Shown one piece after another: positions 2,915-62,092 of a stretch of DNA of 64,000 nt. Location: positions 1-64,000 of the IMG/VR virus record IMGVR_UViG_3300000439_000015. One strand, 5' to 3'. The notes beneath the pieces were generated by a model that worked only from the letters and a program-made list of their open reading frames with translations, ran no database searches and had not been told where the DNA came from. A program made the position numbers and the translations under genes. The DNA comes from a virus (taxonomy: Duplodnaviria > Caudoviricetes). How positions within the stretch are numbered: the first letter of the stretch is position 1; every line of letters begins with the position of its first letter.

Positions 2915-3310
2915 TCACTGCCCCTGAGTTGGGTAATGAACCTCGCCCGTTTGTGCGTATTCCGTGCGCATCTGGTTGGTCATCGCCTTTGCTCGCACCA
3001 TCTGTGCCGCCGTCTCTGCACGCTGCTGATTCACCTTGACACGGGCATCAAGTTCGTCCGCTTTGCTGCCGCCGTTGGCCTTTTCCAAATCTCTGGCGGC
3101 GGTGAAGTGCTTGACGGCCTCTTCGTGAAGTTCCTTGGCTTGTTGCCAGCGTCCGTTATGAAAGCGGTACACGCCAGTACGCTCGGCCCTTTCACCTGCG
3201 TTGACGTGTTCGGCTACCCCCTTGGAGTATTGGTTGCCGTGGAAGATGTGACCGAGTAGGTCGCCCTTTGTGAGCGGATACAACAACCCGTCGGTGGTGA
3301 AATCAGTCAT
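2915..3310 (-). CDS. GNQ-tag family protein (orphan copy) with His/Ala helical payload
   Basis: MTDFTTDGLLYPLTKGDLLGHIFHGNQY leader matches the family at 55.5-63.7 kb. Confidence 0.75.
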   Translation of the reverse strand: MTDFTTDGLLYPLTKGDLLGHIFHGNQYSKGVAEHVNAGERAERTGVYRFHNGRWQQAKELHEEAVKHFTAARDLEKANGGSKADELDARVKVNQQRAETAAQMVRAKAMTNQMRTEYAQTGEVHYPTQGQ

Positions 3311-18686: not shown

Positions 18687-18736
18687 GGCTCTCCAACGGG
18701 GTGTCTTGGACTAAATCCTACCCCACTAAAGCGATT

Positions 18737-21700: not shown

Positions 21701-24700
21701 GATGGAGACGCTTGTACTGTTGAGTGGTGAAACAACAATGTAGTTCTGGTCTGACGTGGCAGTGGCGTAGACGGTGGTGCCGAAGAGCGAGCCAATGGTG
21801 GTGGGGGTAAGAACCTCTTGGTCGCCCACGGTGTCTGAACCGAAGTAGCGGTCACCTACGTCGTAAGAGCCGACAAGCGTTCCTGCGGCGTGGTTGAATG
21901 ACGTGTTGCCGCTCATCATCACAACGCCTGCATTCTGGATTCCCGATGCGTCAAGGGCAGGTGAAGTGTAGGCAGAGTAGATGGTTGCCGTGTTCTCCAG
22001 TGGCAAGATGGCGGTCTGGCTGTCGCCATTTGGATACGTCGTAAAGGCGCTCGTCAAGAAGTTTTCACCGTCCACTGCCCACACGATTGCGGAGTTGGAG
22101 TATGCGTCCACTTCCAATACGGCAAGTCGGCTTTGGTAGAAAACGTAGTTTGGCGTGTACGTCGTGAACGTGGTGTTTGTTGAGCCAACCGTAAGCATGA
22201 ACGGATTGCTTTGGTTGTCCACCAAGTACACGGTGTAGGTAGAGCCGTTCAGCACAATCGCTGAGACGAAACAGATGTTGTAGGCGAACTGGGTGGCTGA
22301 CGTTGATGCAGGAGAGAAAATAACGTTCTGAGGTGAAATGACAACCGCATCTCCGATGTGGATGTACGGCGTGGCGGAAGGCGATACGCCAGTAATGCCG
22401 TTGTAGTTGCCGTTGGCGTATCCCGTCCATGAGTACGAAGGTGAAGCCTCTAGGTTCGCAACCGTGTCAAGGTAGAGCGTATAGGTGGTTCCACCAACCT
22501 GACCTGCCGATACGTTTGTCACGCCAGACTGCAACACGCCAGCGACCAGCAGTGCGTTGCTTTGCGTGCCGCCGATTGGGTACATTCCTGAGAATCCCGT
22601 GAACGGCGTTCCACCAGTGACAGAGCCTGGGTTGACCCATTCGCAGAGGGTGGCGTTGTAGTAGTTGAAATCAATGGTGTCTTGGAGAACCGTGGCGATG
22701 GCAGGATTGGAAACCGTGACCTGCGTGGCGCTGTCCACTGAAATAATGACGGTGCCGCTTGGGAAGCCCGTGTACGAAACCGTTTGCCCGACAAGAAGGC
22801 CATTCGTGCCGTTCAACCCAGCCGCCGTGTTTGCGGTGCTGGAAATGTTGAGGATGGTAGACGTTCCGTAGGCCACGTCGCCCAAGTACGCCGTCACCTG
22901 TGCGGTCTGGTTGATGTTGTAGATGAACGGGCCGCTTATGCCCTTAGCGCTGGCAAGGGCGTTGTAGTTGCTGGAGTAGGGAACGATGTCGCCCGAAACG
23001 TACTGCCCAGACGAAAGACCCGTGATGTCTGATACCTGCAATGGTGCTGAAAAGACCATTTGCGTGGGGCTTACAATGGTGGGGCCAACCAAGTTTGTCG
23101 TTGTGTGAAGCGTCGTGTACGGAACGGTAATCGTTTCACCACCAAACGTTGCCGTTGGGTTTGCGCTGAGGACTACCGTCGAGGCCGTAGTATTCACTGA
23201 AGAGATTGTTGTATTCGCAGGTATGTTCGCCCCTGAGATGCTCATGCCAGCAAACAAAGAACTGATGTTGGTGACGCTCGTCAGGGTCGCAGATGCGGTT
23301 GAAGTTGCGCTTGCGGTAAACGTAGTGCCAGCAGGTGTAATGACATCAACCGAGTAGGCAGGCGTGTAGTCGTATGCGTGCCCACGGGGGCCGTAGAGTA
23401 GCCAGTTGGTTGGTGAAGTCGGGAACGTGCCACTTTGGTCGGTAACCGTTATTGAAGTCCCAGAACCAGTGTATGTACCTTGGAACACCACGGACTGGGT
23501 GACGTTGGCGTAGACGCCCACGCCTTCGACGGTGGTTGAGGCGTTTGGTGAATGGCTCGCCACAGACAGTGCGTTGGCGACAGGATTCGACTTGATGCTC
23601 GTTGGGGTGACGGGCATAATCAAGAACTGCCCGTGGTTTGGATTGTTGTACCCGTCAATGCTCAGGTAGGGGGCAGTGAAAAACGTTTCGTCAAACTTGT
23701 TGCCGCTGTCTGTGTTGAGGCGTGTGACAGTTGAATCAATGGTCGCCCCAAAGATGCCCGTATTGGATTGTGGGACGGCGTAGGAGACGGTGTAGGTGTC
23801 TCGCTGAGTGGTGTTAGCAGAAGCGGCGTTAGAGAGGCTCACGAAGCCATTGCTGACGTTGAACTGGATGCCGCTGGAGTTGCTTGAACCGCCGTTGATG
23901 TCATTGCTCAGGTAGATGTTTCCACCACTGATGTTGATAATGGTTGCCACATTGGTTGTGGCGGTGGTTGATGCGCTGACAATCATGCCGAGCATAAAAC
24001 CCGTGATTTGCGAAATCAAGTTGGTGGTGAAATAGTACGACGTTCCGCTTACCGTGTACGGGGCGCTGACCGTAAACGTCTGTGCGGCAAAGAGAGCGGT
24101 GGTGAAGGTTCCCGTGAACGCCGAACTTGGTTGGTGCGACAGAGTGATGTACTTGTTCACGGTGTCAATGTTTGTAATGACCGTGCTTGCTGGGATGCCC
24201 GTTCCGCTTACGACCTGACCGACGCATAGGTTCTGCAACGTCGTTGAGGTGAAACCACTGCCTGTCACAACGTTCGATACGCTCAAGGTGTATGCCGTCG
24301 CACCAATGCTGGCGGTGACCGTAACTGGCTTGCCACTGACGAACTCGTCCTGCAAGAAGGTTTGTGAAATAGTGGTGCCAGCAGGAAGGTTGTTGCCCTG
24401 AATCGCCATGCCCGAAAGGAAACTTCCGTCGGCTTGGTTGGTGGTGTAATACGAGTTGGAGCCGTTTGTCAAAAACCCGTTAGTGGTATACGAGGACTGG
24501 TAGCCGCCCGTCTGCGAGAAGTTGTACTGAGCCGAGGTGATTGACAAAGGCGTGATTGCCGTGCCTGCGGCAGTTGTCGTGCTGCTGATGGTGATGGTGC
24601 CAGAGCCAACCGATGAAACCGTGGTTCCAAATGGGATGCCAGCACCCAACACAGACATCCCTGCGTACACGCCAGCGGTGCTTGACAGTGAAATCGTGGT

Positions 24701-27652
24701 GGCACCCGACGACCATGTAGCGTTTGGTGCGGTACCGACGTTGTAGCCAAGAGCGTTGCCGACTGCGTACAGTTCGTCAATGTTGAAACTTGCTGAACCC
24801 GTGATACTTGTGCCGTAAGTCTGGTAGCCACCAGAGGCAAGGCTGTTACCCGTGGTGATTGTGGAGCCAGAAACGCTATAGACCGTTGTGTTGCCCAGAA
24901 GCGTTGCACCGTTGTACACGAGGATGCTGTCACCAGCGCCCAGCGGTGGCGTGGCGACGACGTTGTTTAGCGTATTGGAATAGATAGTTCCCGTGAAGGT
25001 GTTGGCGACAACTGCCGAAGTTGTGCTCCATGAAACTGTATTGGCGGTTGCGGAAAGGAGCATCTCCACGGGGCCAGCACCGAGTTGTGTACTGCTGGCA
25101 AAAGTCGTCCCTGCTGGCAAATAAGTGCTGGAAACACTTGACCCACCTGTCAAGATGTTGTCCTGCGTCGTACCTGCCTTGGTTACAAAAACTGCTTCAC
25201 CAGTTGTGCCCGTAAACGTGTTGGTTGAAACGCCTGAAACGCCTGAGGCAACGGTAGTAACCGTCCCAGGCCCAAGCGTCACCCCGTTACCAGAAACGGT
25301 TGTAACGGTTCGACCAAGTGGGATGGCTGTGCCCCCATTGAATGGCGCACCCACGCCAAACAAAGTGCTGATGTTGTACGCCGTGGCACCAACGGTAAAG
25401 GTGCCGCTGGTAGTGACAGTGTACGCCGTGGTTCCAATGTTGACAGAGGTGATTGTGGGCGTGACGTTTGTGCCTGCGGTGGCTGCAACGTTGGAGTTGA
25501 ACACGAACGAGAAGGTTGAGGTGAAAGTTGTATTGGAAAAGTTGTTTGACGGGGCGGCGTTCAGTGCAACACGTTGTGCGCTAGTGCCGTATCCCGTAGC
25601 GTCGTAACCAGCGACGCTGTACGTCGTTCCCCATAGAGAGGTTGCCGTTCCGTTAGCCGTAGGGGTCTTACTGAAAGTGACTGTTCCCGTGCCGATTGAA
25701 ACGATTGTGGTTCCGTTGGGGATGCCTGTTCCGAAAACGGTGGCTCCAACCTGATAGGTGGCGGTGCTGGCAACCGTGGCGGTGACCGATGCCGTTGTCC
25801 AAGTACCAGTGGAGTATTCACCTACACCATTGGCGTAGATGTGCGCCCAGCCCGTGGGTGTGGGGCTGAGGTACGGAAGCGATGCTGCGTTGCCCGAAAG
25901 GAATGAAGAGGAAATAACCATTTTTTGATTGGCAGCAACCGTGTATGTAGCCGAGTTGGTGAAACTAGCGCCCGACAGAAGAGTGCCGGAAGTTTGATTG
26001 ACGTACACCGCCGTTCCCACGGTGGCGGAAGTGACCAGTGCGCCCGAAAAACTAGCCGTTGAGTTGTCAACGGCTTGGTTTAGACCAACAGTCGTGTTTG
26101 TAGTAGCGATGTAACTGCCACCGCCAAGGGTCGCTGTGTATGAAACGGAATCCGGTTGAGACGATGAGCCTGCGGCTGCATTCGACATGGTGATGGTGCC
26201 CGACGTGGAGTTGACGGCTGTGACGTATGTCGTCGCTGGGATGTTCGTGGAAGTCGTGCTGTCGGTGACGACCATTCCCACTTGGATGCCCCGTGTTGCT
26301 GAAACTCCCTGAATGGTGGTGCTGGCATTTGTTACCACGCCAGAGAAGCCTGCGTTGGGCAACTGCATGACGAAAGTCGAGGGGTTGAGCGTCAGGTTCG
26401 TGGTGTTCCCTGAGCCTGCGATAACGGTCTGGCGCTGAGTGTTCGTGTTGAGGTCGGTGACAATCCAACCATTGGAAATCGAGATAATCTTCCCTGCATT
26501 CCACCCCATTGAGGCAGGCGTAAGCGTGGTCTGCGGCTTGGTCGCAATGGTGACGGTCTGGCCTACTGCGAAGTAAGCGGTGCTTGACACGTTGATGGCG
26601 GTGCTGAAATAACCAATCGAAATCGAGAGAACCGTGGGCGGCGTGGCGGCTGCGTAGTTTGCCACCGTAGCGTCAGGCAAGATGCTGGTCAGATTGGAAA
26701 GCGCCTGCGCATCACCACTTGTGGCGACGTACCAAGGCGAGGCCGAGCCGTTGCCGACTGCGTAGGGGGTTGGCGCTTGACCGAGGACGTAGGCCGTGCT
26801 CTGGGCTGCTGAAAGGAACTGCCCCATGTACTTGTTCGCTGGCGGCTTGTAGAACTGCACGTTGGGCGACATCACCGTCGAGATGTTCTGGTACCCCTGA
26901 GGAAGCATCAGCGACGACGTTGGGTAGTCCACGGGGTCTACAGACTGCTTGTACGGGACATTTGGAATCACGCCTGTTGCAGTGAAATCTAACCACTCGC
27001 TGTAGTAAGCGTCAGTCGAGGTGGCGTTTGGCGAGTAGGGGGTCTGCCCCTGTTGCAAGCCTTCCAAGATGGCAACGATTTGACCAGCACGGAATCGAGT
27101 GATGTCGTTGACGTAGAGGAAGAAGTCGCCACCCGTCTGGGCAAACGCCTGTGTTACCGTACCCGTTGCTGAAACGGTGCCAGCCGAGGCCGTGCTCGCC
27201 ACCGTGAATGACGTAGATGAAGCAGCCGTAATCAGGGCTTTGGTGATGTTATACGCCGTTGCGGTGCTCGTCATGGAGACGGAGATGTACGCACTCGTGT
27301 TGGGGATTGCGCCCGATGCTGATTGCGTGTACGAGTATGTGGCGGCGGTTCCCGAAGCCGTCACGCCTGTCACCGAGTAGGTGACTGCCGTACCATCGTT
27401 GGGGTTGAAGGTGTTGGCGGCATTGGCGCTGCGTGTGCCGACATTTGGCTGTTGGAGCGTTGTACTGGTGGTGAAAAACTGGTACAGGTCTTGCGCTTGA
27501 CCGTAGTAAGTGTTGCCCGAAAGGTCGGGAATCGTGGCTACTGAAAAGTGCGTTACGTCGTCTACGGCATCGGCGTGGTCTGATGAGTTGACGACTGTCC
27601 AGTTACCCTGCGAAGCAACCGTAGATTTAGGGCGTAACGTAAGGACTTTCAT
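18737..27652 (-). CDS. Giant tail/adhesin protein (2971 aa) with repeated GxxVxGxGIPxxTxI modules
   Basis: Uninterrupted 8.9 kb ORF right after the tape measure gene; at least 11 copies of the module. Confidence 0.75.
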   Translation of the reverse strand: MKVLTLRPKSTVASQGNWTVVNSSDHADAVDDVTHFSVATIPDLSGNTYYGQAQDLYQFFTTSTTLQQPNVGTRSANAANTFNPNDGTAVTYSVTGVTASGTAATYSYTQSASGAIPNTSAYISVSMTSTATAYNITKALITAASSTSFTVASTASAGTVSATGTVTQAFAQTGGDFFLYVNDITRFRAGQIVAILEGLQQGQTPYSPNATSTDAYYSEWLDFTATGVIPNVPYKQSVDPVDYPTSSLMLPQGYQNISTVMSPNVQFYKPPANKYMGQFLSAAQSTAYVLGQAPTPYAVGNGSASPWYVATSGDAQALSNLTSILPDATVANYAAATPPTVLSISIGYFSTAINVSSTAYFAVGQTVTIATKPQTTLTPASMGWNAGKIISISNGWIVTDLNTNTQRQTVIAGSGNTTNLTLNPSTFVMQLPNAGFSGVVTNASTTIQGVSATRGIQVGMVVTDSTTSTNIPATTYVTAVNSTSGTITMSNAAAGSSSQPDSVSYTATLGGGSYIATTNTTVGLNQAVDNSTASFSGALVTSATVGTAVYVNQTSGTLLSGASFTNSATYTVAANQKMVISSSFLSGNAASLPYLSPTPTGWAHIYANGVGEYSTGTWTTASVTATVASTATYQVGATVFGTGIPNGTTIVSIGTGTVTFSKTPTANGTATSLWGTTYSVAGYDATGYGTSAQRVALNAAPSNNFSNTTFTSTFSFVFNSNVAATAGTNVTPTITSVNIGTTAYTVTTSGTFTVGATAYNISTLFGVGAPFNGGTAIPLGRTVTTVSGNGVTLGPGTVTTVASGVSGVSTNTFTGTTGEAVFVTKAGTTQDNILTGGSSVSSTYLPAGTTFASSTQLGAGPVEMLLSATANTVSWSTTSAVVANTFTGTIYSNTLNNVVATPPLGAGDSILVYNGATLLGNTTVYSVSGSTITTGNSLASGGYQTYGTSITGSASFNIDELYAVGNALGYNVGTAPNATWSSGATTISLSSTAGVYAGMSVLGAGIPFGTTVSSVGSGTITISSTTTAAGTAITPLSITSAQYNFSQTGGYQSSYTTNGFLTNGSNSYYTTNQADGSFLSGMAIQGNNLPAGTTISQTFLQDEFVSGKPVTVTASIGATAYTLSVSNVVTGSGFTSTTLQNLCVGQVVSGTGIPASTVITNIDTVNKYITLSHQPSSAFTGTFTTALFAAQTFTVSAPYTVSGTSYYFTTNLISQITGFMLGMIVSASTTATTNVATIINISGGNIYLSNDINGGSSNSSGIQFNVSNGFVSLSNAASANTTQRDTYTVSYAVPQSNTGIFGATIDSTVTRLNTDSGNKFDETFFTAPYLSIDGYNNPNHGQFLIMPVTPTSIKSNPVANALSVASHSPNASTTVEGVGVYANVTQSVVFQGTYTGSGTSITVTDQSGTFPTSPTNWLLYGPRGHAYDYTPAYSVDVITPAGTTFTASATSTASATLTSVTNISSLFAGMSISGANIPANTTISSVNTTASTVVLSANPTATFGGETITVPYTTLHTTTNLVGPTIVSPTQMVFSAPLQVSDITGLSSGQYVSGDIVPYSSNYNALASAKGISGPFIYNINQTAQVTAYLGDVAYGTSTILNISSTANTAAGLNGTNGLLVGQTVSYTGFPSGTVIISVDSATQVTVSNPAIATVLQDTIDFNYYNATLCEWVNPGSVTGGTPFTGFSGMYPIGGTQSNALLVAGVLQSGVTNVSAGQVGGTTYTLYLDTVANLEASPSYSWTGYANGNYNGITGVSPSATPYIHIGDAVVISPQNVIFSPASTSATQFAYNICFVSAIVLNGSTYTVYLVDNQSNPFMLTVGSTNTTFTTYTPNYVFYQSRLAVLEVDAYSNSAIVWAVDGENFLTSAFTTYPNGDSQTAILPLENTATIYSAYTSPALDASGIQNAGVVMMSGNTSFNHAAGTLVGSYDVGDRYFGSDTVGDQEVLTPTTIGSLFGTTVYATATSDQNYIVVSPLNSTSVSIGGTYYDQYGNIASQGISPTTGTTITGVTTVAGNYYMTLPTIASPNISVGWTVRGNGIPTGTVVTYIDSGNIYLSNPISVSASSASYLFTPQVWGVMVVGEGDTQETVVFNGTYNFLSGAATGNTISPISIALAAGQKFQYNHFAGEPVVVPNIYTLDGFQNQHAAGALISAGAENAASAQGQQNLLADNTSGAQAATFDTMISLSPNWLTSGDNDSPSIATTLAVPASASATTLTITTNDLFPTSNYNNVINSGLFLPPEIGRVAGLIASGATAVPFLPNGSTIPSMPLFFVQIGYDVVQVLNVAIDATGAISPTGYYLNLVATTSATYVDGTPITLKMLDTNTTHNSLNVPHSYLNRSFSGSASVGSNVITSVYCATPLSASVTSTVPSTATVAGQTTLVYSGTAPSVGMSVFGDTVISANTIVVAVAPTTTTVTLSKPLMGAITSTNALTFAYAVQGANIPSLAYIAGTSGTFTSGTGTVTLTYASGQPAYPTVTTTSQVTMNIDASLYSSGQYVSTLYISPAPCYLPSGSTIYLKSGLYTQIVTTSASVNTGDTSISVSPFIPVFDYIAANVANGAVTNFYNGSNTATLVSYGLINELSADQTIVLGSGTTPQELVVTEPEPFFSDKISVQPFIPLYNYDNTLVASGSFTAATTVATNTITLSTYSFSGYLTSGSATITGVSSIAGLYTGEGLSGTGIPLNSYIVSMTASASGTFITMSQNASATTSNGTINAAPQVGQQLISTSVTGTFTANLTAGSTTIAGVSSTANLVVGTQITGAGIPYDTVITSISGSSAILNLVATLSATGETISFTTTAFSSPAFVTSVSGPTVTTNIPACATFSGTTLRVNPTTLTAPIELVVGNETLSEIVYPYTIPVRQTNGTYQMQIAAPLSNSYDTGTNVSFYAQPTAVSGDVRWKPDTQTIQKYDGTRWNDAEVASVQISVALQGAENGGDKHTYALTDLTTGDVAPADTYQNATNPAASS

Positions 27653-27685
27653 GGGCTGACCCCCACTTTACTACTGTTCCAGCGT

Positions 27686-30600
27686 TTAGCGTCCTTGCGC
27701 TCGCACTGCGTATTTCAGTTGCTTGAACTGTTCGTTGACGTGATTCTTCACGTCCGACATGGATGCGCTGTCCAGTGAACCCTGTACGTTGACTTGGAAG
27801 GCCCCTTGGTGGACGTTTACGGTGGTGTGGGGCACGTTGGAACCCTTTGTACCCGTGAGTGCCTTTCCAGCCGCAGCAGAGGCGCTGAGGATGTGTACGT
27901 TCATCGCCCCAGCCGTCGTCGGGGCTGTCTTTCCACCAGATGCACTTGGGCCACCGATTGTCTTTAGGTAGCCAAACTTGGCTCCGCCACCCAAACCAAG
28001 CCACCCAAGGACGTTTCCAATCGTGGCGTTGTACGCCTTGATAATCATGTTGGCAACACGAACGAAGCCGTTGTACAAGCCGTCCCAGATGGTCTTGCCA
28101 ATGCTCTCCACATAACCGAATGCGCCAGTAAGCCAACTCCACACTTTTTTACCAGCGCCCAAAATGTCGTGCCATACGCCGACTGCTGCGTTGCGAACAG
28201 CATCCCACGCACTGACGAACCAGCCCATGACGACCTTGCCAGCGTCCATGATTCCACCCCAAGCGCCTTGAATCCAACCAAATACGGTCTTTGCTGCGTC
28301 CTCAATGCCGTGCCAAGCGTCAACGGCCCAGTGCTTGACATCCTTCCAATACTTGATGATGAGGTACACCGCAGTGCCGACAAGGGCTACTGCGCCCGTA
28401 ATCAGCAAGAGTTCAGGCAAGATTGGAAGCAGGGCAGTCCACAGTGCCGCACCCATTTCCACGATGGCAGGGATGATGGTTTCGGTGATAGCCGCCCATG
28501 CACCAAGCGCCAACTCCTTCATTCCTGCAAGTGCGCTCAGGACGAACCCCTTGAACGCCCCAGCCATTTCACCAATCGCAGGGATAATCGTTTCGGTAAT
28601 CATGGTGCTTGCGGCAATGGCAAACTTCTTTATGGCTCCCAAGGCGGAGAGGGCAAATGCTTTTGCCTTCCCTGCCATAAGAACAAATGCGTCACCAACC
28701 GTGGTCGCAAGGTTTCTCATCCAAGCCCCAGCGGACAAGGCAAAGTCCTTCATCCACCCCAAGGCGGTGAGAGCAAACGCCTTTGCCTGTGAAGCCATGG
28801 ACGCAAGCGCCGTTCCAGCATTAGAAGCAAGGTTTTTCATCCACGACAAACCGTTGGTGATGAACGTCTTTAGGGCCTTACCCATCTTGCCAAACACGCC
28901 AACAGAGGTGCCTTCCGTGGCGGTCATTTCTGCTTCAATGGTTCCTGTGGCCCCAGTGAAATCGGTAACCATCTGTGCGCCCGTGGCATCGGCAACGGCC
29001 CCGATGGTTGCGAAGTTCCCTTCAACACTGGCAGACATTGCCGCTGCTTCACCAGAAATGGTCGTCATTGACGTACCGATTGCGGTTTCGGTTCCCGTTC
29101 CTGCGGTGACTGCATCGAGCACCTCAGAGCCAAACATCTTCTTGATGATTTTACCAGCGCCACCAAACATGTTTCCAAGGCCGTGAACGAGCGGAGCCAT
29201 CGAGCCGAGTTCACCACTCAACTGCATGGCACCCATCATCATGCCGTTCCAGTCAACCTTCTTGCCGTTGAACAGGTCTGAGATTCCCTTGCCGAACTGC
29301 GACAACTGACCCATTCCACCACCGAGGGCGAACGACGTTGCGGCACCGAACGCACCAGTCGCCGCCATACCAACGCCCGATGCGAACTGGCGACCACCAC
29401 CCGTGCCGCCAAGACGACCACCGAGGCGGCTGAAGAACGAGGGCTTCGAGATTCCTTCCAGTGCCTTCGCAGACTTTTCAGCGGCCTCTCGTGCTTTGGC
29501 GTTATCGTCCCCCATCCGCTTCATCATCTGGTAGGTCTTGGCGCTCCAAGCATCCTTTTCTTCCTGCGTCGTCCCCCCAGGCTTAGCACTAGCAATCATC
29601 ATCGCTTGGTAGTATGGACTGTTCTTGTATGATTCAGCGCCCGTGTGGACGGTTGAACTCATGCCCGTCTTGAACATGTCGGCGGACGCTTGCAGCGCCT
29701 TGGTGTTCTCGTTCAGAGCCGAGATGTTGCCCTCTTCGTCCTCGCTGGGCAACTGCGACTGCTTCATGAACTCTTGAACGCTGAGGTTTGAGCCGAGCAG
29801 GTAGTTTTTCACCCCTCGTGCTTTCTTCAGTTCCGCTTGACGGGCCTCGTAAGCGGCATCGCTTTCACCAGCCTTCTGTCGGGCGGCGAAGTACTTACCG
29901 AACAATGGCATGGTCTGCAAGCGAGCGTTCTTGTAAACTTCTTCGGCTTCGGGGCCTTGCACGTCGAGCATGCGCTGAAGTCGAGTAGCGGAGCGTGGGT
30001 TGACCTGCTTGGTCAGAACCATCATGTTCAACTGGCGCTGGCGAATGTCTTTTTCAGCAGCAGCCATGCCCTTGCGCCAACCCATGCCCATTCCTGCAAA
30101 GGCGCTATCACCCTCTTCACGAATACCTGAGAAGGCACCCTTGAACCCAGCCTTCATGCGGATGGTCTGGCGCAAGACGCTGCCCACCATCTTTTCAGTA
30201 CCCTGCACAAGGGCCATCATCGGGGTTTGGAACAACTTTTTCGAGAACCAAACGGCGGCAAACGCCAACATGATTCCACCAAGTACCGCAAACAACGGCT
30301 TGAACTTGGTAATGACCCTTACGAAACCATCGAAGCCGCTAACCAAGGCATTGATTGTCTTGGCTGAAATCTTCGCCAGAATGGTAACAAGTTCCGCAAA
30401 GTACGGGATAATGGGCATGACGGCTTGGAGCATCTGAGCAAATGCCGTAACCAAAGTTGGGAGCACGGGAAGGATTGCGGTGAGAACGCCGAGAAAGGCG
30501 TTGAGCAACTGCGTGAGTTGTCCGCTCTGCTCCAACTTCTTGAAAATCCCAGCCAGTTCATTCAGGGCAGGTAAAATGGCACCAGCGACGGCGGTACCCA

Positions 30601-31735
30601 ACTTGATGAAGAGGTTGACGAAGATGCCAATCTCCTTGCTGCTGAACACCTTTGACAAGATTTGTCCAACTGCCGAGAAGAAACCGATGATTGGCTTCAG
30701 TACCGCCAGCAATGCAGGAAGAAATCCTGAGGTGAAAATCTTTATCATCGGCATGAAACTGGTAACCAAGGCACCAAGCGCATTACCAATCGTGGACGAC
30801 ACCAGCGTCATGGACTGTGCGATGGCGTTGAAGAGTGGCATGGCTGCTTGGAGCGCCGCACCCAACAACTGCGCCATGTTGTCAATGACGGGCATCAGCC
30901 CTCGGCCCAGCGTTTGACCGAGGTTGTTGAAGTCGTTTTGCAAGCGTTCAACTGGTGTAATGGCGGCCTCTGCGGTGCCACCCAACTGTGAGTTGATGTC
31001 CTTGATGGTCAACTGCTGAGCGGCAAGAAGGCCGTTGCGCTTCTCCGTCAACTTGATTTGTTCCTGCATGGGCTTCGAGAGGTGGAATCCCATGCGAGAC
31101 ATGGAACCCATTGCCTTGGCAGGGTCGGCAAGCACTCGTCCCAGCGCCTTGGCACCCGTGACGACGCTTCCTCGTGAACCCATCTGTGCTGAAAGGTTGG
31201 CGGCAGCAATCAATGACTGGTTTAGGTAGTCGCCGCTCTTCTTCGTTTCAGCATTCTGCGAGTTGTACAGTTTTGTCAGGTCTTGGTTTGGAATAAGAAG
31301 ATTCTGGGCCTGAATGATGCTGTTCTTCGAGATACCAGTTTGGAACGACATCTTGGTCGCCTGTTGGTCGAGCAGCGCCGAGTACTGTTCACCAGCCTTG
31401 TTGATGGCTGTCTGCGTACCGAGAACGGTTGACAAGCCGCCAACGAACGACATACTTGCGGAGCCTTGGTTTTTCACCAAGACTGCCTGTTGTGCCTGCA
31501 AACTGGTCTGCTGCGAGGCGAGGTCTACACCCTTGCTAAGCAGTGCGTATGCACCACCGAAAGCAATGGCTGAGCCAACGATTCCACCAACGTTGCTAAA
31601 CAAGTTGGTCATGCGACCAGCGACGTTAGAGGCGTGTGCCGATACAGCGTCTAGTGATTCTTGAAGGTTGGTGGGGTCACCAATAATCTGTACCCGAAGT
31701 TGGGCAGCAGATTCCATTCCACCTGACATAGACAT
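27686..31735 (-). CDS. Tape measure protein
   Basis: 1349 aa Ala/Gly-rich; N-terminal LRVQIIGDPTNLQESL; C-terminal W-spaced repeats; follows the tail chaperones. Confidence 0.9.
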   Translation of the reverse strand: MSMSGGMESAAQLRVQIIGDPTNLQESLDAVSAHASNVAGRMTNLFSNVGGIVGSAIAFGGAYALLSKGVDLASQQTSLQAQQAVLVKNQGSASMSFVGGLSTVLGTQTAINKAGEQYSALLDQQATKMSFQTGISKNSIIQAQNLLIPNQDLTKLYNSQNAETKKSGDYLNQSLIAAANLSAQMGSRGSVVTGAKALGRVLADPAKAMGSMSRMGFHLSKPMQEQIKLTEKRNGLLAAQQLTIKDINSQLGGTAEAAITPVERLQNDFNNLGQTLGRGLMPVIDNMAQLLGAALQAAMPLFNAIAQSMTLVSSTIGNALGALVTSFMPMIKIFTSGFLPALLAVLKPIIGFFSAVGQILSKVFSSKEIGIFVNLFIKLGTAVAGAILPALNELAGIFKKLEQSGQLTQLLNAFLGVLTAILPVLPTLVTAFAQMLQAVMPIIPYFAELVTILAKISAKTINALVSGFDGFVRVITKFKPLFAVLGGIMLAFAAVWFSKKLFQTPMMALVQGTEKMVGSVLRQTIRMKAGFKGAFSGIREEGDSAFAGMGMGWRKGMAAAEKDIRQRQLNMMVLTKQVNPRSATRLQRMLDVQGPEAEEVYKNARLQTMPLFGKYFAARQKAGESDAAYEARQAELKKARGVKNYLLGSNLSVQEFMKQSQLPSEDEEGNISALNENTKALQASADMFKTGMSSTVHTGAESYKNSPYYQAMMIASAKPGGTTQEEKDAWSAKTYQMMKRMGDDNAKAREAAEKSAKALEGISKPSFFSRLGGRLGGTGGGRQFASGVGMAATGAFGAATSFALGGGMGQLSQFGKGISDLFNGKKVDWNGMMMGAMQLSGELGSMAPLVHGLGNMFGGAGKIIKKMFGSEVLDAVTAGTGTETAIGTSMTTISGEAAAMSASVEGNFATIGAVADATGAQMVTDFTGATGTIEAEMTATEGTSVGVFGKMGKALKTFITNGLSWMKNLASNAGTALASMASQAKAFALTALGWMKDFALSAGAWMRNLATTVGDAFVLMAGKAKAFALSALGAIKKFAIAASTMITETIIPAIGEMAGAFKGFVLSALAGMKELALGAWAAITETIIPAIVEMGAALWTALLPILPELLLITGAVALVGTAVYLIIKYWKDVKHWAVDAWHGIEDAAKTVFGWIQGAWGGIMDAGKVVMGWFVSAWDAVRNAAVGVWHDILGAGKKVWSWLTGAFGYVESIGKTIWDGLYNGFVRVANMIIKAYNATIGNVLGWLGLGGGAKFGYLKTIGGPSASGGKTAPTTAGAMNVHILSASAAAGKALTGTKGSNVPHTTVNVHQGAFQVNVQGSLDSASMSDVKNHVNEQFKQLKYAVRAQGR

Positions 31736-51016: not shown

Positions 51017-52003
51017 CTAGATAATCGAGTTCCAGAAGAAGCCGAGGTCGGCGGCAACAACCTTGTCGTCGAAGGCGATTTCACCTTCAACACGGTCAGC
51101 CTTCAACTCTTCCATGCGGAAGCGTGAAACACCAACCGTGGTGCCGAGGCCACCCGAAACGCCAGTCCACATAAACGTGTAACCAGCCGAAGGGGTCATC
51201 AGACCAGGGTTAGGAGCCGAGTAGCACAACAGAGCGTTGTTGTTGGCGGTGAAGTTGTACGAGCCGGTCAAGCCTTCGTCAGCGTTGTTGACGACTGCCT
51301 TGGCGACGAGCACACGGTCAAGACCGAAGAGTTGAGCAATCAAGTCCTCGGTGATGATGGCACCAGCCTGCGTGTACTTGTAGCGGTCAACCAGCGTGGG
51401 GTGAGCCTTCAACTTCTGAAACACGGGGTACGAGAGCACGAGCGTGTTGGGTTCGTAACCAGTGTTCTGAAGAACCTGATACTTGGCCCACTCGATGTCC
51501 ACGATGGGCAGACCGTTGGTGTAGTCAGACCACTTGATGGTGGTCGCCGTACCAGCGGTACCTGCACCAGCGGTTACACCGATAGCGTCGGTGCCCCACA
51601 CGCCACCCTGAAAGAAGTCCTGCGCCCACTGCACTTCACGGCGCAGCAAGAGACGCTGGGTGACGAACTGCGTCGCTTCCATGTCGGGGTTGAGGGGGTT
51701 GTCGGCGTTAGCACGGGTCTGGTCGCCAATGTCCTTGTGGAAGGCGAACACGTCGGCCTGATAGGTGTCCGTGGTGAGGCCGTAACCTGAACCAGCGGAA
51801 GCCGTACCGTCGGCACGACGCTGAGCCTCGTCACGGAACCAGTCGTCCTTGGTGTACTTGAAGTAGAGGTTCGACTTCTTGTCCACTGGAACGACAGGGA
51901 AAACCTTGTCCGCAATGAAGTTGTTGGTGTTCTGCAAGTACGCAACCGAGATGTTCGTCAGGATTGCGTCAATGTGAACGTTGTTTACTGATGGCTGTGG
52001 CAT
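51017..52003 (-). CDS. Major capsid protein
   Basis: HIDAILTNISVAYLQ...IADKVFPVVPV...ITEDLIAQLFGL...VVAADLGFFW. Confidence 0.9.
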   Translation of the reverse strand: MPQPSVNNVHIDAILTNISVAYLQNTNNFIADKVFPVVPVDKKSNLYFKYTKDDWFRDEAQRRADGTASAGSGYGLTTDTYQADVFAFHKDIGDQTRANADNPLNPDMEATQFVTQRLLLRREVQWAQDFFQGGVWGTDAIGVTAGAGTAGTATTIKWSDYTNGLPIVDIEWAKYQVLQNTGYEPNTLVLSYPVFQKLKAHPTLVDRYKYTQAGAIITEDLIAQLFGLDRVLVAKAVVNNADEGLTGSYNFTANNNALLCYSAPNPGLMTPSAGYTFMWTGVSGGLGTTVGVSRFRMEELKADRVEGEIAFDDKVVAADLGFFWNSII

Positions 52004-57509: not shown

Positions 57510-57941
57510 TCACTTTGGCAGGTCAGCGTTGCCGTAGTGGTTTACCGCAGCCATTGTCTGGTTTACTGCCTTGGAAGCGTCTGTCGCTACGTTCTTGTTG
57601 CTGTAGTCCGCAACCTTGGCCCACGTCTTTTGAGCAGCGAGGTGCGCTTGGGCGAGGGCGTTCAGGTTGCCAGCAACGTCTTTGTAGCCAGTTTCGTTTC
57701 GTGCTGCCATTGCTTTGGCTGCTTCACCACGGTGGTACTCCGCCATGCCCAAAGCGTCTGCACGGTTTGGTGCACCGCCAATACGGTCACTGCCAACTTT
57801 GGCTGCTCGTCGCACAATGTTGTCCGTTCTGCCCGAAGTGAACTGGTTGCCGTGAAAGGGGTGACCATCAACGTCGCCTTTAGCCACGGGGTAGCGAGAG
57901 AGTGACTTGAGTAGTTCGTCGGTGTGGAAGCCAGATGACAC
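57510..57941 (-). CDS. GNQ-tag family protein
   Basis: MSSGFHTDELL...YPVAKGDVDGHPFHGNQF; RBS AAGGAG. Confidence 0.75.
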   Translation of the reverse strand: MSSGFHTDELLKSLSRYPVAKGDVDGHPFHGNQFTSGRTDNIVRRAAKVGSDRIGGAPNRADALGMAEYHRGEAAKAMAARNETGYKDVAGNLNALAQAHLAAQKTWAKVADYSNKNVATDASKAVNQTMAAVNHYGNADLPK

Positions 57942-58049: not shown

Positions 58050-58128
58050 GACTGACTTGGGGGCGCTGGACACAACGCCAAGTACATTCACACCGACCCC
58101 TGCCGAAAGGTGGGGGATTCGGTTTATT
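58050..58128 (+). ncRNA. Putative ~79 nt trans-acting antisense sRNA
   Basis: Own promoter; 5' hairpin ACTTGG/CCAAGT with loop CTGGACACAA; 3' GAAA-loop terminator (G.U pairs favour the plus strand) plus TTTATT; 14-nt identity to 59987-60000. Confidence 0.65.
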
Positions 58129-58621
58129 GGGGCCTGTTTGCGTCCCAAAGTGAGGTGAAATGGCCTCGCTCCGCTTCGCCAATGTGCTCCAAGAGCAGGT
58201 ATCCATCGAGATGGTCTGTCTCGTGCTGAAAGATGCGAGCGAGCAATCCTTCCCCGTCAATCCTGTACTGGTTCCCGTCAAGGTCAAGGGCCGTCAAGGT
58301 CGCTTTGTACGAGCGGCTGATTTGCCACCCGAACTTGGGCACCGACAAGCATCCTTCGGGCGTGACCTCGATGTCAAGGGGGTCAGTGAAAACCTCTGGG
58401 TTGATGGCGACGTGAGCGCCCGTGCCGTCGCCGCTGTCCCAAACGAACATGCGGTGCGAGTAGCCGATTTGGTTGGCGGCAAGCCCAACACCGAGGTGAA
58501 AGTACATGGCCTCAACCATCTCGGCGGCAATCATCTTGATGTTGTCTGTGATTTCACTGACCGAGGTCGTGGGGGCTTCCAAAATGGGGTCGCCATAGAA
58601 ACGCAGGGCTGGGATGTTCAT
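58124..58621 (-). CDS. def: Peptide deformylase
   Basis: GVGLAANQIG, EGCLSV and QHETDHLDG motifs; start ATG 58621. Confidence 0.92.
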   Translation of the reverse strand: MNIPALRFYGDPILEAPTTSVSEITDNIKMIAAEMVEAMYFHLGVGLAANQIGYSHRMFVWDSGDGTGAHVAINPEVFTDPLDIEVTPEGCLSVPKFGWQISRSYKATLTALDLDGNQYRIDGEGLLARIFQHETDHLDGYLLLEHIGEAERGHFTSLWDANRPQ

Positions 58622-58884
58622 CGTGCGCCCATCTCTCTCTTTGCCTCTTCGAGCAGTTCGGCGGTGAAGTCCTCTGGCGACAGTTCGGTCTTGGCGTGGG
58701 CCATCAACTTGCCGCAAGCGATGCTGAACGCCCATGTGTACAGGCTGAGTTCCTCGTCGAGGTGCGTCAACTCCTTGCGGTAGCCGAGAACCATCTGGTC
58801 GTGCTTGGCAATCAGCCCTGCCGTCCCAGTGCGCATGGTAGCCAACTTCTCTTCGAGGTCGGCAATCTGCTCCGACTTACGCAC
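58618..58884 (-). CDS. Coiled-coil hypothetical protein
   Basis: 88 aa, overlaps both neighbours. Confidence 0.6.
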   Translation of the reverse strand: MRKSEQIADLEEKLATMRTGTAGLIAKHDQMVLGYRKELTHLDEELSLYTWAFSIACGKLMAHAKTELSPEDFTAELLEEAKREMGAR

Positions 58885-59408: not shown

Positions 59409-59942
59409 TTAGCAGCCGTCGGCGTTCCATTCTGGGTGGATTCCGCCATTACGGTTCCAATAGAAGGCGGCGACACGGAACTGGTCTGCGATGCTCGCAT
59501 CTTGGGCGTACTGGGCGGTGATGCCAAGGGCGTGAGCGCCGAACTGCCACGTTGGGGGCATGAACTGGAAGATGCCTGCTGCGCCTTCTGGGTTCACCTC
59601 ACGGTAGTTGTGGAAGTCCGTGGGGGTCGAGCGAGATTCACGCCACATGACGCAGGTGAAGGCCGCTCGGCTCGGTGGTGGGAGCAAGTCCGTGTAGCCA
59701 CCAGAGGGGGCTGTGTGGCTCGCTACGGGCTTTGGCTTGGCTTTGTGGTGAACCACAGGCTTGGCGACGTGAGCGTGCACCACGGGGCGGCTGTTGCCGT
59801 ACCAGAAGATGGTAATCATCTTGGGCGTAGTCGTCCGAGCGGCGAGGTGATAGGCCACCTTGGGCGCAGCGTGGAACGTTCCTACGACAAGGGAGACTAC
59901 GACTGTCAGTGCGAGGAAGCCACCTCGCACCGTGCCTAGCAC
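59409..59942 (-). CDS. Secreted/anchored Rpf-like lytic transglycosylase
   Basis: N-terminal hydrophobic helix, Pro/His/Lys linker, CVMWRES...AAGIFQFMPPTW...QDASIADQ...W...C lysozyme-like domain; start GTG 59942 inferred. Confidence 0.75.
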   Translation of the reverse strand: MLGTVRGGFLALTVVVSLVVGTFHAAPKVAYHLAARTTTPKMITIFWYGNSRPVVHAHVAKPVVHHKAKPKPVASHTAPSGGYTDLLPPPSRAAFTCVMWRESRSTPTDFHNYREVNPEGAAGIFQFMPPTWQFGAHALGITAQYAQDASIADQFRVAAFYWNRNGGIHPEWNADGC

Positions 59943-59995
59943 GAGCCTGCCTTGGTAGAGGGATAGAACGGTACCGCTATTGGGTTGCTGGACAC
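59936..59995 (-). CDS. Leader uORF (19 aa) overlapping the Rpf-like start
   Basis: AAGGAG-6 nt-GTG; MSSNPIAVPFYPSTKAGSC*; ends in GTGCTAG overlapping the Rpf GTG. Confidence 0.5.
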   Translation of the reverse strand: MSSNPIAVPFYPSTKAGSC

Positions 59996-60031
59996 AACGC
60001 ACTCCTTTGGTTGCCCATTGGGGGATGCACC

Positions 60032-60060
60032 AGTTTACCCGAATGTGACGGATAAGGCAA
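60032..60060 (-). promoter_or_regulatory. Promoter of the uORF-Rpf-def operon
   Basis: TTGCCT-17-TAAACT. Confidence 0.65.
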
Positions 60061-60137
60061 GTACTAAGCGATTTCCTTGCAAATAAAGGGTTTTGCCCAC
60101 ACCGTCGAGGTGATAGAAAAAAAACATGCAAAAAGAC

Positions 60138-60167
60138 TTGACAGATGTCACACGGGGGTGCCATACT
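60138..60167 (+). promoter_or_regulatory. TGTCAC-box promoter 5 (drives the large ncRNA)
   Basis: TTGACA-18-CATACT with TGTCACA at 60146-60152, then GGTTAGGTA as at 9169. Confidence 0.8.
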
Positions 60168-60173
60168 GGTTAG

Positions 60174-60504
60174 GTAAGAAAGCAGCAGTGCCGAGGTGCG
60201 CTTGTAAAGTCCCCACGAGAAAGTGGTCGAGCAAGCCGAAGGCCAGCCTGTGAGCCGTACCACCTGTTTGCGACACGGGCGCATTCAGTAAGGCCGTAGG
60301 GAGTTCGGAGCGAACTACGGCGAGGTGGGTACGGAACTCCTAGTGGGGGTGAGTGTTAGGCGTGAGGAAAAGCGCAAACCACCGAACCGCAAGGGGTAGG
60401 GTCGGGCGCTCGTTGGGAAACGGGTAGTCCGCCAGTGACATCAGTACGGAAAACCAAGGCTACCGAGTTAGAAGTCCCCTCAGCAAAGGCTGGGGGGATT
60501 TTCT
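60174..60504 (+). ncRNA. Putative large structured ncRNA (~330 nt), family unassigned
   Basis: Promoter plus terminator, no plausible ORF; nested long-range stems and GNRA loops (see findings). Confidence 0.7.
60472..60504 (+). terminator. Terminator of the large ncRNA (abuts the polyprotein stop)
   Basis: AAGTCCCCTCAGC-AAAG-GCTGGGGGGATT-TTCT. Confidence 0.7.
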
Positions 60505-62092
60505 ATTTGTAGACCTCGTTCAGCACTTGATAGTGGATTTGGCTTGCCTTGTCGTCGTCGCCTGCCTCGTGCGCCTCTTGCTCTTGGGCGAGCAGTTTGG
60601 CAGCCTTGTCGCTGAGGTGTTCTTCCTTGGGCTTCGTTGCCTTTTGGAACGGGAGCAGGGCGTACTTGGCCCAGATTTCGCCAGCGGTTTTGGAAACGTC
60701 GCCTTTTTGGACTGGGCTTTCCCAAACAACTGCGTCGGGGTTCCAGATTGAGTAGTTCGTGTGGTCTTTGGGCTGCGAAATGTCTTGTTGTGAAACTAGG
60801 GTCATCTTGCCATCTACGTTTGCGGTCTTTCCATCCTCTTCGTTGGTTAGGCCGCTTGTAAATAACTTCGCTCCATCTCTAAGTTTCCCACGGAGTACGG
60901 TTCCGCCCTCACCAGCGTAGGCACGAGCGACTTCTTCGCTATCGGTTGCGTAAACTGCTTTTCCGTCTAGACCGATTTCTTTCTTGCCGCTTAGGGTATC
61001 CGAGACTGCTTGCGAACTTCTTACGCCTCGATAAACGGTTACTCCACTTGCGTCAGTCGTTTCCCACTGATTTCCGTGAAAGACGTGGCCCTGAACGTCG
61101 CCCTTTTGGACGTGCCGCTCTACCATGGACTTCGCCCACGAGTAGCCAGCATCACCACCCCACGCATCCCACGCCACACGTCCGTGCGACGGGTATCCGT
61201 GTTCACCCTGACGGAAGCCTTCTGCCTTCTTGTCGGGCTGGTGACGGTCAAAATACGCCTTCATCCGCTTCAGAGTGTCCAGTGAAATCTGGTGCCCGTT
61301 ACCGAGGTCTGACGCACGCTTGCGCCCGACGTTGGTGAACCCTGAGCCAGCCTTGCCGTCGGCAATCCATTCCAATGCTCGCTTAGCGGCCTCTTGTACC
61401 CCCTGCGGCGGAGTGAACGTATCCTTCTTCACCGCAAAGTGGGCAGCGAGGGTTTGGAACACGTCAATAAGGCGGTTCAAGTTGTCAATCATCTGGGCGT
61501 ACTTGTCGTCCATGCCGAGTTGGTGAAACTCATCCTGTAGCGCCTCTAGACGGGGCCGTAAGCCTGCCAGCGTCTCCAAGGTCAGTCCTGCGTTCCAAAG
61601 GGCTGTGGCGACCTCTGGGGTGGCTTCACGGACACGAAAGTTGCAGAGAGCGTGGTCAATGCCGACTATTCCACCTTGGGCAAACATCAGGTTCTTGGGA
61701 CGACGGTCTGCGTTGGCGGTGATGTAGTCGAACAGGCGTAGGTTTCTGCCTTGGTTATCGTTTGGGTAGCAGTCCTCGCTGCCGAGTTCCAATCCTGACT
61801 TGCCGTCAATGTACGGCATAATCACCATCTTGGCATCGGTTCCCACAAAGCGGCAGTCACGGACGGGGGCGTTCATCGCCTCTCCGACACGGGCGGCGAG
61901 ATACTCCTGAGCGGCGAGTATTTCAGCACGGTACAAACGACCCGTCTTGTTGCCGTGCCAGTCCTTCATGTGCTTCTCGACCCCTTCGGAGCCATCAGCA
62001 AAGCGAACACGGAACATTCCGTCGTTCTGGTTGCCCTTCACAAACATGGGTTCACGAGACACGATGTCCGTGCTGGTGAACGGCACGAACAT
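60503..62092 (-). CDS. Multidomain GNQ-tag protein: HipA/PI3K-like kinase, conserved phage head domain, ART-like domain
   Basis: QEYLAARVG...FDYITANADRRPKN...GIDH; TPPQGVQEAAKRAL...GRVAWDAWGGDAG; VQKGDVQGHVFHGNQW then VYRG...GKAVYATDS...ARAYA...YSIWNPDAV. Confidence 0.75.
   Translation of the reverse strand: MFVPFTSTDIVSREPMFVKGNQNDGMFRVRFADGSEGVEKHMKDWHGNKTGRLYRAEILAAQEYLAARVGEAMNAPVRDCRFVGTDAKMVIMPYIDGKSGLELGSEDCYPNDNQGRNLRLFDYITANADRRPKNLMFAQGGIVGIDHALCNFRVREATPEVATALWNAGLTLETLAGLRPRLEALQDEFHQLGMDDKYAQMIDNLNRLIDVFQTLAAHFAVKKDTFTPPQGVQEAAKRALEWIADGKAGSGFTNVGRKRASDLGNGHQISLDTLKRMKAYFDRHQPDKKAEGFRQGEHGYPSHGRVAWDAWGGDAGYSWAKSMVERHVQKGDVQGHVFHGNQWETTDASGVTVYRGVRSSQAVSDTLSGKKEIGLDGKAVYATDSEEVARAYAGEGGTVLRGKLRDGAKLFTSGLTNEEDGKTANVDGKMTLVSQQDISQPKDHTNYSIWNPDAVVWESPVQKGDVSKTAGEIWAKYALLPFQKATKPKEEHLSDKAAKLLAQEQEAHEAGDDDKASQIHYQVLNEVYK

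Follow-up and report, generated by a model that had tools for sequence, protein, structure and literature searches.

We analyzed a 529-residue protein, here designated P0001, encoded at 60503..62092 (stop codon included) in the IMG/VR virus record IMGVR_UViG_3300000439_000015 (Caudoviricetes), and our results support its being a chain of separable modules with joints at lysines 222/223, 330 and 463. The window under study comprises the first 64 kb of this 85,207-bp single-contig record, which IMG/VR classes as linear and approximately 68% complete. The minus strand carries nearly all genes of the record, and every feature located by coordinates below lies on that strand. The P0001 translation is free of stops, and its ATG comes immediately after the TAA that ends the gene upstream. 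The gene is part of a head cassette of approximately 16 kb (71.5 to 55.5 kb), situated after the genes for the portal and an XkdF-like protease and before the capsid gene. We put forward a reading in which P0001 is a polyvalent head-cassette protein of mobile modules that would be loaded into the prohead, cut at its joints and ejected, and we regard the odds of this complete scheme as even.

The modular architecture of P0001 is revealed by a natural allele. The 90% cluster of this protein contains a 396-residue allele (P0259), which is present on 14 contigs from several samples with unchanged gene order. It matches P0001 at 98% identity, except that exactly residues 331-463 are missing. Compared with the ENA contig segment L126:6001-7191, the difference is a gap of 399 nt running from just after the codon of K330 to just after that of K463. 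The swappable segment absent from P0259 (60704..61102) comprises a short tag, an orphan module and a terminal VQK. In the long allele, both of its ends carry the sequence GTCCAAAA(G/A)GGCGACGTT, a 17/18-nt direct repeat encoding VQKGDV; copy 1 (GTCCAAAAGGGCGACGTT) lies at 61094..61111 and copy 2 (GTCCAAAAAGGCGACGTT), which forms joint 3 (K463↓G464, the arrow marking the joint), at 60695..60712. The presence of an indel at direct repeats indicates that the tag and orphan module constitute a cassette gained or lost via recombination at the joint, the orphan module being a payload that is accessory and varies between strains. An earlier note on this DNA had read P0001 as a polyprotein with all of its domain boundaries on hydrophobic-x-K sites (φ-x-K hereafter). 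Since the indel ends at K330 and K463, two of these boundaries are now confirmed to the residue.

Homology breaks delimit the same modules. The BLAST matches of homologues start or end at query residues 221-227, 324-337 and 460-466, and the chance of three breakpoints each falling within two residues of one of the eight φ-x-K sites in P0001 is approximately 4e-4. Joint 1 (A220-V-K-K-D224; 61421..61435) connects the kinase to the central domain. Joint 2 and its tag, V328-Q-K330↓G-D-V-Q-G-H-V-F-H-G-N-Q-W343 (61064..61111), match the homologue logo described below. Beyond joint 3, homology and the AlphaFold2 (AF2) model outline a helical tail (residues 466-529; 60506..60697) that ends in V-Y-K529 and is 88% identical to the C-termini of P0004 and P0122, two homologues with different middle modules. 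VQKGD is found twice, at residues 328-332 and 461-465; residues 335-343 hold the GNQ tag and residues 482-484 FQK, in the places given by the earlier note. Its more general claim stands only in part: homology breaks and the natural allele uphold boundaries at K222/223, K330 and K463, while K19 falls inside a predicted fold. Nor is φ-x-K in its generic form enriched, being at chance level in P0001 (8 of 37 lysines, versus 8.5 expected); it is the longer form φ-x-K-[GASY]-[DE] that stands out, its density in the head cassette exceeding that in the remaining proteome 8.6-fold (p 3e-7).

The joint follows a 16-residue consensus, [VI]-x-K-G-D-x-x-G-H-x-F-[HR]-G-N-Q-[WY]. The logo derived from 111 non-identical instances in 47 homologues, [VI]-x-K-G-D-[VL]-x-G-H-x-F-[HR]-G-N-Q-[WY], shows V or I at position -7 in 86% of instances, K at position -5 in 94% (R in 2/111) and the ensuing G-D in 93-96%, with G, H, F, G, N and Q invariant. 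Homologues harbor up to eight copies of the tag, and the tag region of P0001 is predicted to be disordered, with an AF2 predicted local distance difference test (pLDDT) of 33-48. At the end of the kinase, homologues present a φ-φ-x-K joint followed by either a GD tag or the central domain, and in some of them the site occurs in tandem (VVKSVKK, VVKSFEK, VVKSLGHKVQK). The central domain is likewise flanked by lysine sites: φ-x-K is found at a fixed distance ahead of 82% of 201 central domains (19% background), the lysine lying five to six residues ahead of the PP in F-T-P-P, and within 20 residues after 81% of them (29% background).

Within this genome we identified 16 copies of the pattern [VIL]-x-K-(GD/YE)-x-x-G-H-x-F-x-G-N-Q, all of them on the minus strand and all but one, an outlier at 2915-3310, between 55.9 and 71.2 kb. 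In most open reading frames (ORFs) of the head cassette the tag comes after an N-terminal leader of 15-25 residues (M-x-D-F-S-T-D-A-L-L...), and no tag was detected in the portal, the protease, the scaffold candidates or the major capsid protein. The dipeptide after the lysine is paired with the residues that follow, GD going with F-H or F-R and YE with F-N. Three of the 14 cassette ORFs, P0001 (VYK) among them, end in φ-x-K (p 5e-4), as if a stop codon had replaced the joint. The other two are located at 57510-57941 (LPK) and, in genome coordinates, 65300-65659 (L001:1300-1659; LQK).

The tag extends well beyond this phage. A back-translated pattern retrieves at least 119 IMG/VR stretches; among the matches listed, a stretch contains up to 10 copies, nearly always on a single strand. 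Homologues of the portal accompany at least 24 of these 119 loci, homologues of the XkdF-like protease at least 13 and homologues of the major capsid protein at least 14. In the IMG/VR loci, termination in φ-x-K is seen in 9 of 159 tagged ORFs and in 22 of 3,156 other ORFs (8.5-fold, p 9e-6). To look for cultured phages with the tag, 50,697 phage records were searched by tblastn with a 50-residue leader-plus-tag query, and no match was returned. A large sister family (P0037-P0076, approximately 706-745 residues, phrog_2859-like) has a sister tag after the central domain, φ-x-K↓H-[NL]-x-G-x-H-D-Q-x-x-H-G-[SA]-W, which could be another form of one address code. Neither the GNQ-type nor the HDQ-type motif string appears in any phage paper of the literature searched, where we also found no description of a lysine joint with a GHxFxGNQ tag or of the six-helix domain.

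The first module (residues 1-222; 61427..62092) is kinase-like, as the earlier note had recognized in calling it HipA/PI3K-like. The AF2 model of P0001, built on a 54-sequence alignment, reaches pLDDT values above 90 across residues 1-330 and shows a bilobal kinase fold at residues 7-220. Foldseek searches with the kinase model recover kinases only, the best being CtkA (E 7.6e-5). Structural alignment with VIA-align places Helicobacter pylori CtkA (3akk) first, with a Z-score of 14.5 and a root-mean-square deviation of 3.7 over 206 residues (model residues 8-222), followed by PI4KIIalpha (Z 12.6), Rio kinases (Z about 12) and HipA/HipT (Z 11-12). Sequence profiles stay below their thresholds: Pfam PF00454 scores 16.2 bits against a cut-off of 27.1 (E 0.01), the PI3_PI4_kinase match covering residues 121-150 and thereby the catalytic loop, and TIGR03843 scores 19.2 bits against 172 (E 6e-4). 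The module thus resembles CtkA, HipA and PI4KII kinases yet lies outside the curated families (PF00454, PF20613).

Conservation of at least 90% among 25 homologues is observed for GNQ (20-22), K40, K43, E63, D129RRPKN134 and GIDHALCNFR (144-153). These include a D-x-x-x-x-N catalytic loop (D129-R-R-P-K-N134; 61691..61708) and, in GIDHA, D146-H147 (61652..61657), the metal-binding Asp equivalent to that of DFG. The conserved K40, K43 and E63 are candidates for the pair of ATP-binding Lys and helix-C Glu. Because the catalytic residues are kept in the 25 homologues on a kinase fold, we predict the module to be a catalytically competent atypical kinase. G20-N21-Q22 (62027..62035) is probably its P-loop, as judged from conservation and from the point where the structural alignment starts; there GNQNxG of P0001 falls where we presume the G-A-Q P-loop of HipA to lie.

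This assignment bears on K19, which the earlier note had taken for the end of a cleavable leader (FVK19↓G). We rule out K19 as a leader cut site, since the predicted kinase fold spans it and it adjoins the conserved GNQ. Residues 1-30 are modeled with pLDDT 93-95 and include a strand at 10-16, with the fold beginning at residue 7/8. Structural alignments start at residues 4-9 with CtkA, Rio and PI4K and at 18-19 with HipA. In the homologue P0012, where the kinase comes after the central domain, the supposed leader residues travel along with it (FVKLTSTKI... at residue 290), and GNQNxG (20-25), directly after K19, is called invariant in the 25 kinase homologues. A cut at K19 would accordingly take away the first strand of the N-lobe. 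The earlier note had named predicted domains that span the K sites as refuting its reading, and at K19 this is what the model shows.

The central domain (residues 224-328; 61109..61423), with its motifs GFT.VG..RA, RH..D and P..GRVAW.AWGG, corresponds to phrog_2859 (E 2.8e-46), bearing out the conserved phage domain that had been noted after the kinase. Nearly all of the 3,718 cluster representatives matching P0001 at E≤1e-3 do so via this domain. Folded alone by AF2, it forms six helices at a pLDDT of 96.8, and 16 columns are invariant among 29 sequences, including G..T..G..RA, RH..D, P..G and W..WGG. It matched no Pfam or NCBIfam family, and no solved relative was found: profile searches of PDB sequences gave E≥0.3, the best Foldseek hit had E 0.68, and VIA-align against 48,161 chains reached at best Z 4.8, with unrelated helical membrane proteins. 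Among the BFVD structures that match it (template modeling scores 0.75-0.97) are many named prohead protease, XkdF, portal or Mu gp29, and its fusion partners comprise portal C-termini (PF04860), MuF, zeta toxin, GNAT, NUDIX, ParB_N and DUF3626. In gp04 of Synechococcus phage S-CBS1 it forms the N-terminal module of a protease-capsid protein fusion. Since this domain so regularly accompanies portal and protease genes, a prohead-associated role would be its most economical reading. The S-CBS1 protein (L005:4007-6517), annotated "major capsid protein", spans 836 residues and consists of the six-helix domain, a prohead protease and an HK97-type capsid protein, with SIKK↓ARED following the first module. 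S-CBS1 is thus a cultured phage that carries the central domain and is suited to probing its processing.

The orphan module (residues 344-460; 60713..61063) had been described as an ADP-ribosyltransferase (ART)-like domain, a call for which we obtained no profile, homologue or confident fold. Searches with the whole piece and with region 349-462 found no homologue in a collection of 5.8 billion proteins beyond its own 90% cluster, and IMG/VR yielded a single match, a 100%-identical fragment apparently from the same phage. The module has no match to Pfam at E≤10 or to PDB sequences, and PF00644 (PARP) and PF18760 (ART-PolyVal), searched directly against the genome, gave none either. Its AF2 pLDDT is approximately 30, owing to the lack of homologues in the alignment. 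All of its named ESM-Atlas neighbors are ARTs (PARP, Tox-ART-HYD1, Arr-ms and ART-PolyVal) at 0.89-0.91, values within the noise range of the tool, which states that 4-10% of shuffled sequences reach 0.9. Read by eye and outside any ART alignment, YRG (354-356) and VYATDSEEVARAYA (380-393), which opens with VYATDS (380-385), resemble ART motifs 1 and 2; at the third ART position (NYSIW, 446-450) no Glu or Gln-x-Glu is evident, in agreement with the earlier remark that no obvious catalytic Glu is visible there. From this language-model similarity and motif resemblance, an ART fold appears possible but doubtful.

The surroundings of P0001 are as follows. The portal gene (73375-75009; phrog_113, E 2e-80) is followed by that of a 552-residue XkdF-like protein (71550-73208; L001:7550-9208) matching Peptidase_S78_2 at residues 413-531 (E 4e-12). 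The protease makes up the C-terminal third of this protein, which also contains a charged, coiled region at residues 163-265. Twelve residues ahead of the protease domain lies a φ-x-K-S-E site, LQK401↓SE, a candidate self-release site judging by its sequence. The head module ends with the major capsid protein gene (51017..52003; phrog_1005, E 1.5e-96), whose product aligns over its residues 2-327 with a full-length capsid profile; between it and the head cassette are genes for an exonuclease, a 271-residue scaffold candidate (phrog_13547) and a cement/decoration-like protein. The neighbor immediately upstream of P0001 (62093..63073, 326 residues) is a paralogue of the kinase module (26% identity, E 8e-15) with a weak HipA_2 match, an N-terminal leader and a YE-type tag (K-YE) at residue 16, so that the phage has two atypical kinases side by side. 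The same paralogue contains a spacer rich in Gly, Ala, Pro and Arg. Synteny with related contigs marks the third gene upstream of P0001 (63721-64440) as weakly MuF-like and also places a Dps/ferritin gene in the cassette. Directly downstream of P0001, the cassette encodes a weakly SLT/Rpf-like transglycosylase (59409-60284) and a peptide deformylase (58124-58735; E 2e-40), both without a tag. Farther away, downstream of the tail-fibre genes, three giant ORFs (1,617, 2,971 and 1,349 residues) occupy 13833-31735. A megablast search with the 8-kb region returned no match.

In the scheme we favor, the central domain would most likely bring P0001 into the assembling prohead, where the XkdF-like serine protease would cut the loaded precursor after K222/223, K330 and K463, and perhaps K484; the kinase and the other modules would then be released as separate internal proteins and leave the capsid with the DNA. 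Packaging into the capsid seems to us somewhat probable on the evidence of sequence and gene context, and cutting at the joint lysines slightly less than an even proposition. Cleavage is suggested by the composition of the joint, with a fixed Lys (not Arg) at P1, a hydrophobic residue at P3, a small one at P1′ and an acidic one at P2′. It is also suggested by the repeated sites that close the kinase in some homologues, by the predicted disorder of the tag, by the leader-plus-tag build of the neighboring single-module ORFs, by the ORFs that stop right after φ-x-K, and by LQK401↓SE ahead of the protease domain. The head cargo of T4 (L/I-x-E) and of phiKZ and SPN3US (A-x-E) provides an analogy for such cutting, and HK97 is cut after a lysine, Lys103 (Lys103↓Ser104). 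The mobility of the modules is apparent among the homologues, in which the kinase sits before or after the central domain and chains of up to 2,795 residues incorporate MuF, ADPrib_exo_Tox and a second kinase. The earlier note had looked to semi-tryptic termini in virions for confirmation, a flawed test: Lys is also where trypsin cleaves, and ends produced at the joint lysines would look fully tryptic instead.

Several observations weigh against this scheme. We found no proteomic or biochemical data for this phage or for other tag-bearing phages, and no specificity data for the XkdF family in the literature on XkdF and prohead-protease cleavage. The major capsid protein has neither a delta domain nor a tag, and the genome offers no capsid maturation site for comparison. 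Only 5.7% of the tagged ORFs end in φ-x-K, and the lysine conserved ahead of the central domain may be no more than a part of the N-terminus of this domain. The joint between the kinase and the central domain is short and modeled at a pLDDT of 84-89, so the two may stay together. Moreover, the direct repeats make the joint a DNA recombination site as well, which would partly explain its recurrence without cutting.

The last two points also favor an explanation in which P0001 remains a single, uncut polyvalent chain, packaged or acting in one piece. Its joints would be flexible linkers combined with a docking or address peptide, and the joint DNA a recombination site for module swaps, by analogy with VENN, the pre-toxin motif of CdiA. 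The 17/18-nt direct repeat at both ends of the natural indel, the short and confidently modeled first joint and the predicted disorder of the tag are all compatible with this explanation, and Iyer et al. (PMC5512222) note polyvalent proteins transferred full-length. The peptide, however, is conserved far past the needs of recombination, with G, H, F, G, N and Q invariant and K at 94% in homologues that are just 35-60% identical, and the tandem φ-x-K sites and φ-x-K-ending ORFs are hard to square with a linker role. We consider an uncut chain rather unlikely. Less likely still is that P0001 is not cargo at all but a late cytoplasmic enzyme, such as a kinase that acts on proteins of the host or the phage during assembly, with a gene that just happens to be located in the head region. 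Peptide deformylase, exonuclease and transglycosylase-like genes in or beside the cassette do indicate that not all of its products need be structural, and the search for virion data came back empty. Set against this are the fusion of the central domain to portals, prohead proteases and a capsid protein precursor in other phages, the presence of MuF in homologous chains and the portal, protease and capsid genes found at the IMG/VR tag loci, which together make a non-cargo enzyme improbable.

The conserved K (94%), D, H, N and Q contained within 16 residues also bring to mind a chemically active tag, either self-cleaving or tethering cargo to a head protein through a Lys-Asn/Gln isopeptide bond. 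HK97-type capsids do use Lys-Asn isopeptides. Yet the tag matches no known autoprocessing motif and is predicted to be unstructured, and a covalent tether fits ejection poorly; we regard such chemistry as very improbable. Returning to loading, cutting and ejection, a broader proposal is that the 16-residue joint, together with the sister form K↓H-[NL]-x-G-x-H-D-Q-x-x-H-G, constitutes a general "address-and-cut" code of phages with XkdF/HK97-type proteases, with the six-helix domain as a common prohead anchor. We advance this generalization tentatively, judging it less probable than its converse.

If it is correct, the code would be the lysine-specific counterpart of the glutamate system of T4 and phiKZ, found in thousands of environmental phages, where it would serve to bring interchangeable enzymes into the capsid and to set them free as separate effectors. 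Should the joint be a protease site, the mature cargo sets of thousands of uncultured phages would become predictable from sequence alone, and a short peptide would be available for loading chosen or foreign proteins into capsids. The proteins that travel with phage DNA decide the first minutes of infection, and they are known in detail for only a few model phages (T4, P1, N4 and phiKZ-like). The locus analyzed here offers a natural example of how such proteins are constructed: its joint motif is fixed, its swappable cassette is captured in two alleles, one with and one without it, and its head-associated domain is very common. Alongside T7 gp0.7 and the HipA toxins, the kinase would be a further means of reprogramming the host by phosphorylation.

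Among known systems, polyvalent proteins offer one frame, being defined by several unrelated enzymatic domains in a late or virion polypeptide, by the shuffling of their modules and by predicted delivery with the DNA; the family includes kinases, ARTs, GNATs, zeta toxins and fusions to MuF or portal (PMC5512222). P0001 conforms to this description, uniting at least two domains of disparate activity in one polypeptide within a phage late/virion gene context. In the same paper, processing is proposed mainly via zincin-like metallopeptidase domains, of which P0001 has none, and the polyvalent kinase clade, from Verrucomicrobia and Bacteroidetes phages, is without a C-terminal subdomain, whereas the P0001 kinase keeps its helical C-lobe. 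Neither the lysine joint nor the GHxFxGNQ tag nor the six-helix domain came up in a term search of this paper. MuF polymorphic toxins of temperate phages and the SPP1 gp7/Mu gpF fusions, as cited there, similarly combine a constant head-associated part with variable C-terminal effectors. A MuF link is present in the synteny-derived MuF-like gene three genes upstream and in the homologue P0125, which contains MuF; P0001 itself, unlike MuF toxins, has no PF04233 match, and its six-helix domain seems to fill the place of the constant, head-associated part.

A parallel for the proposed mechanism is the head cargo of T4 and of the phiKZ/SPN3US group, which enters the prohead, is trimmed and leaves by ejection (PMC10052503), as we infer for P0001. 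T4 internal proteins, with their capsid-targeting sequence, and the ejection proteins of phiKZ and SPN3US carry short N-terminal propeptides or leaders (20-24 residues in SPN3US/phiKZ) and a three-residue motif with a fixed P1, S77-type proteases cutting after Glu at L/I-x-E or A-x-E (PMC10052503). P0001 differs in having Lys as its putative P1, an XkdF-like Peptidase_S78_2 as the protease and a site extended by an invariant tag of 13 residues. In phage P1, a 30-residue N-terminal packaging signal suffices to load DarB, a large anti-defence enzyme (PMC9024508), providing a model for the 15-25-residue leaders of the head cassette, although the sequences of signal and leaders are not similar and P0001 starts without a free leader of this kind. 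CtkA, HipA/HipT and PI4KIIalpha, the best structural matches of the kinase, share its D-x-x-x-x-N loop and metal-binding Asp; at 10-16% identity to them, the P0001 kinase is much smaller (about 215 residues) and has no partner of the HipB/HipS type. In all, its sequence suggests that P0001 would work like T4/phiKZ head cargo and not as a MuF toxin, with a kinase that scores below curated thresholds. To these systems the present analysis adds a residue-exact natural indel at the joints, and corrects both the K19 boundary and the ART call.

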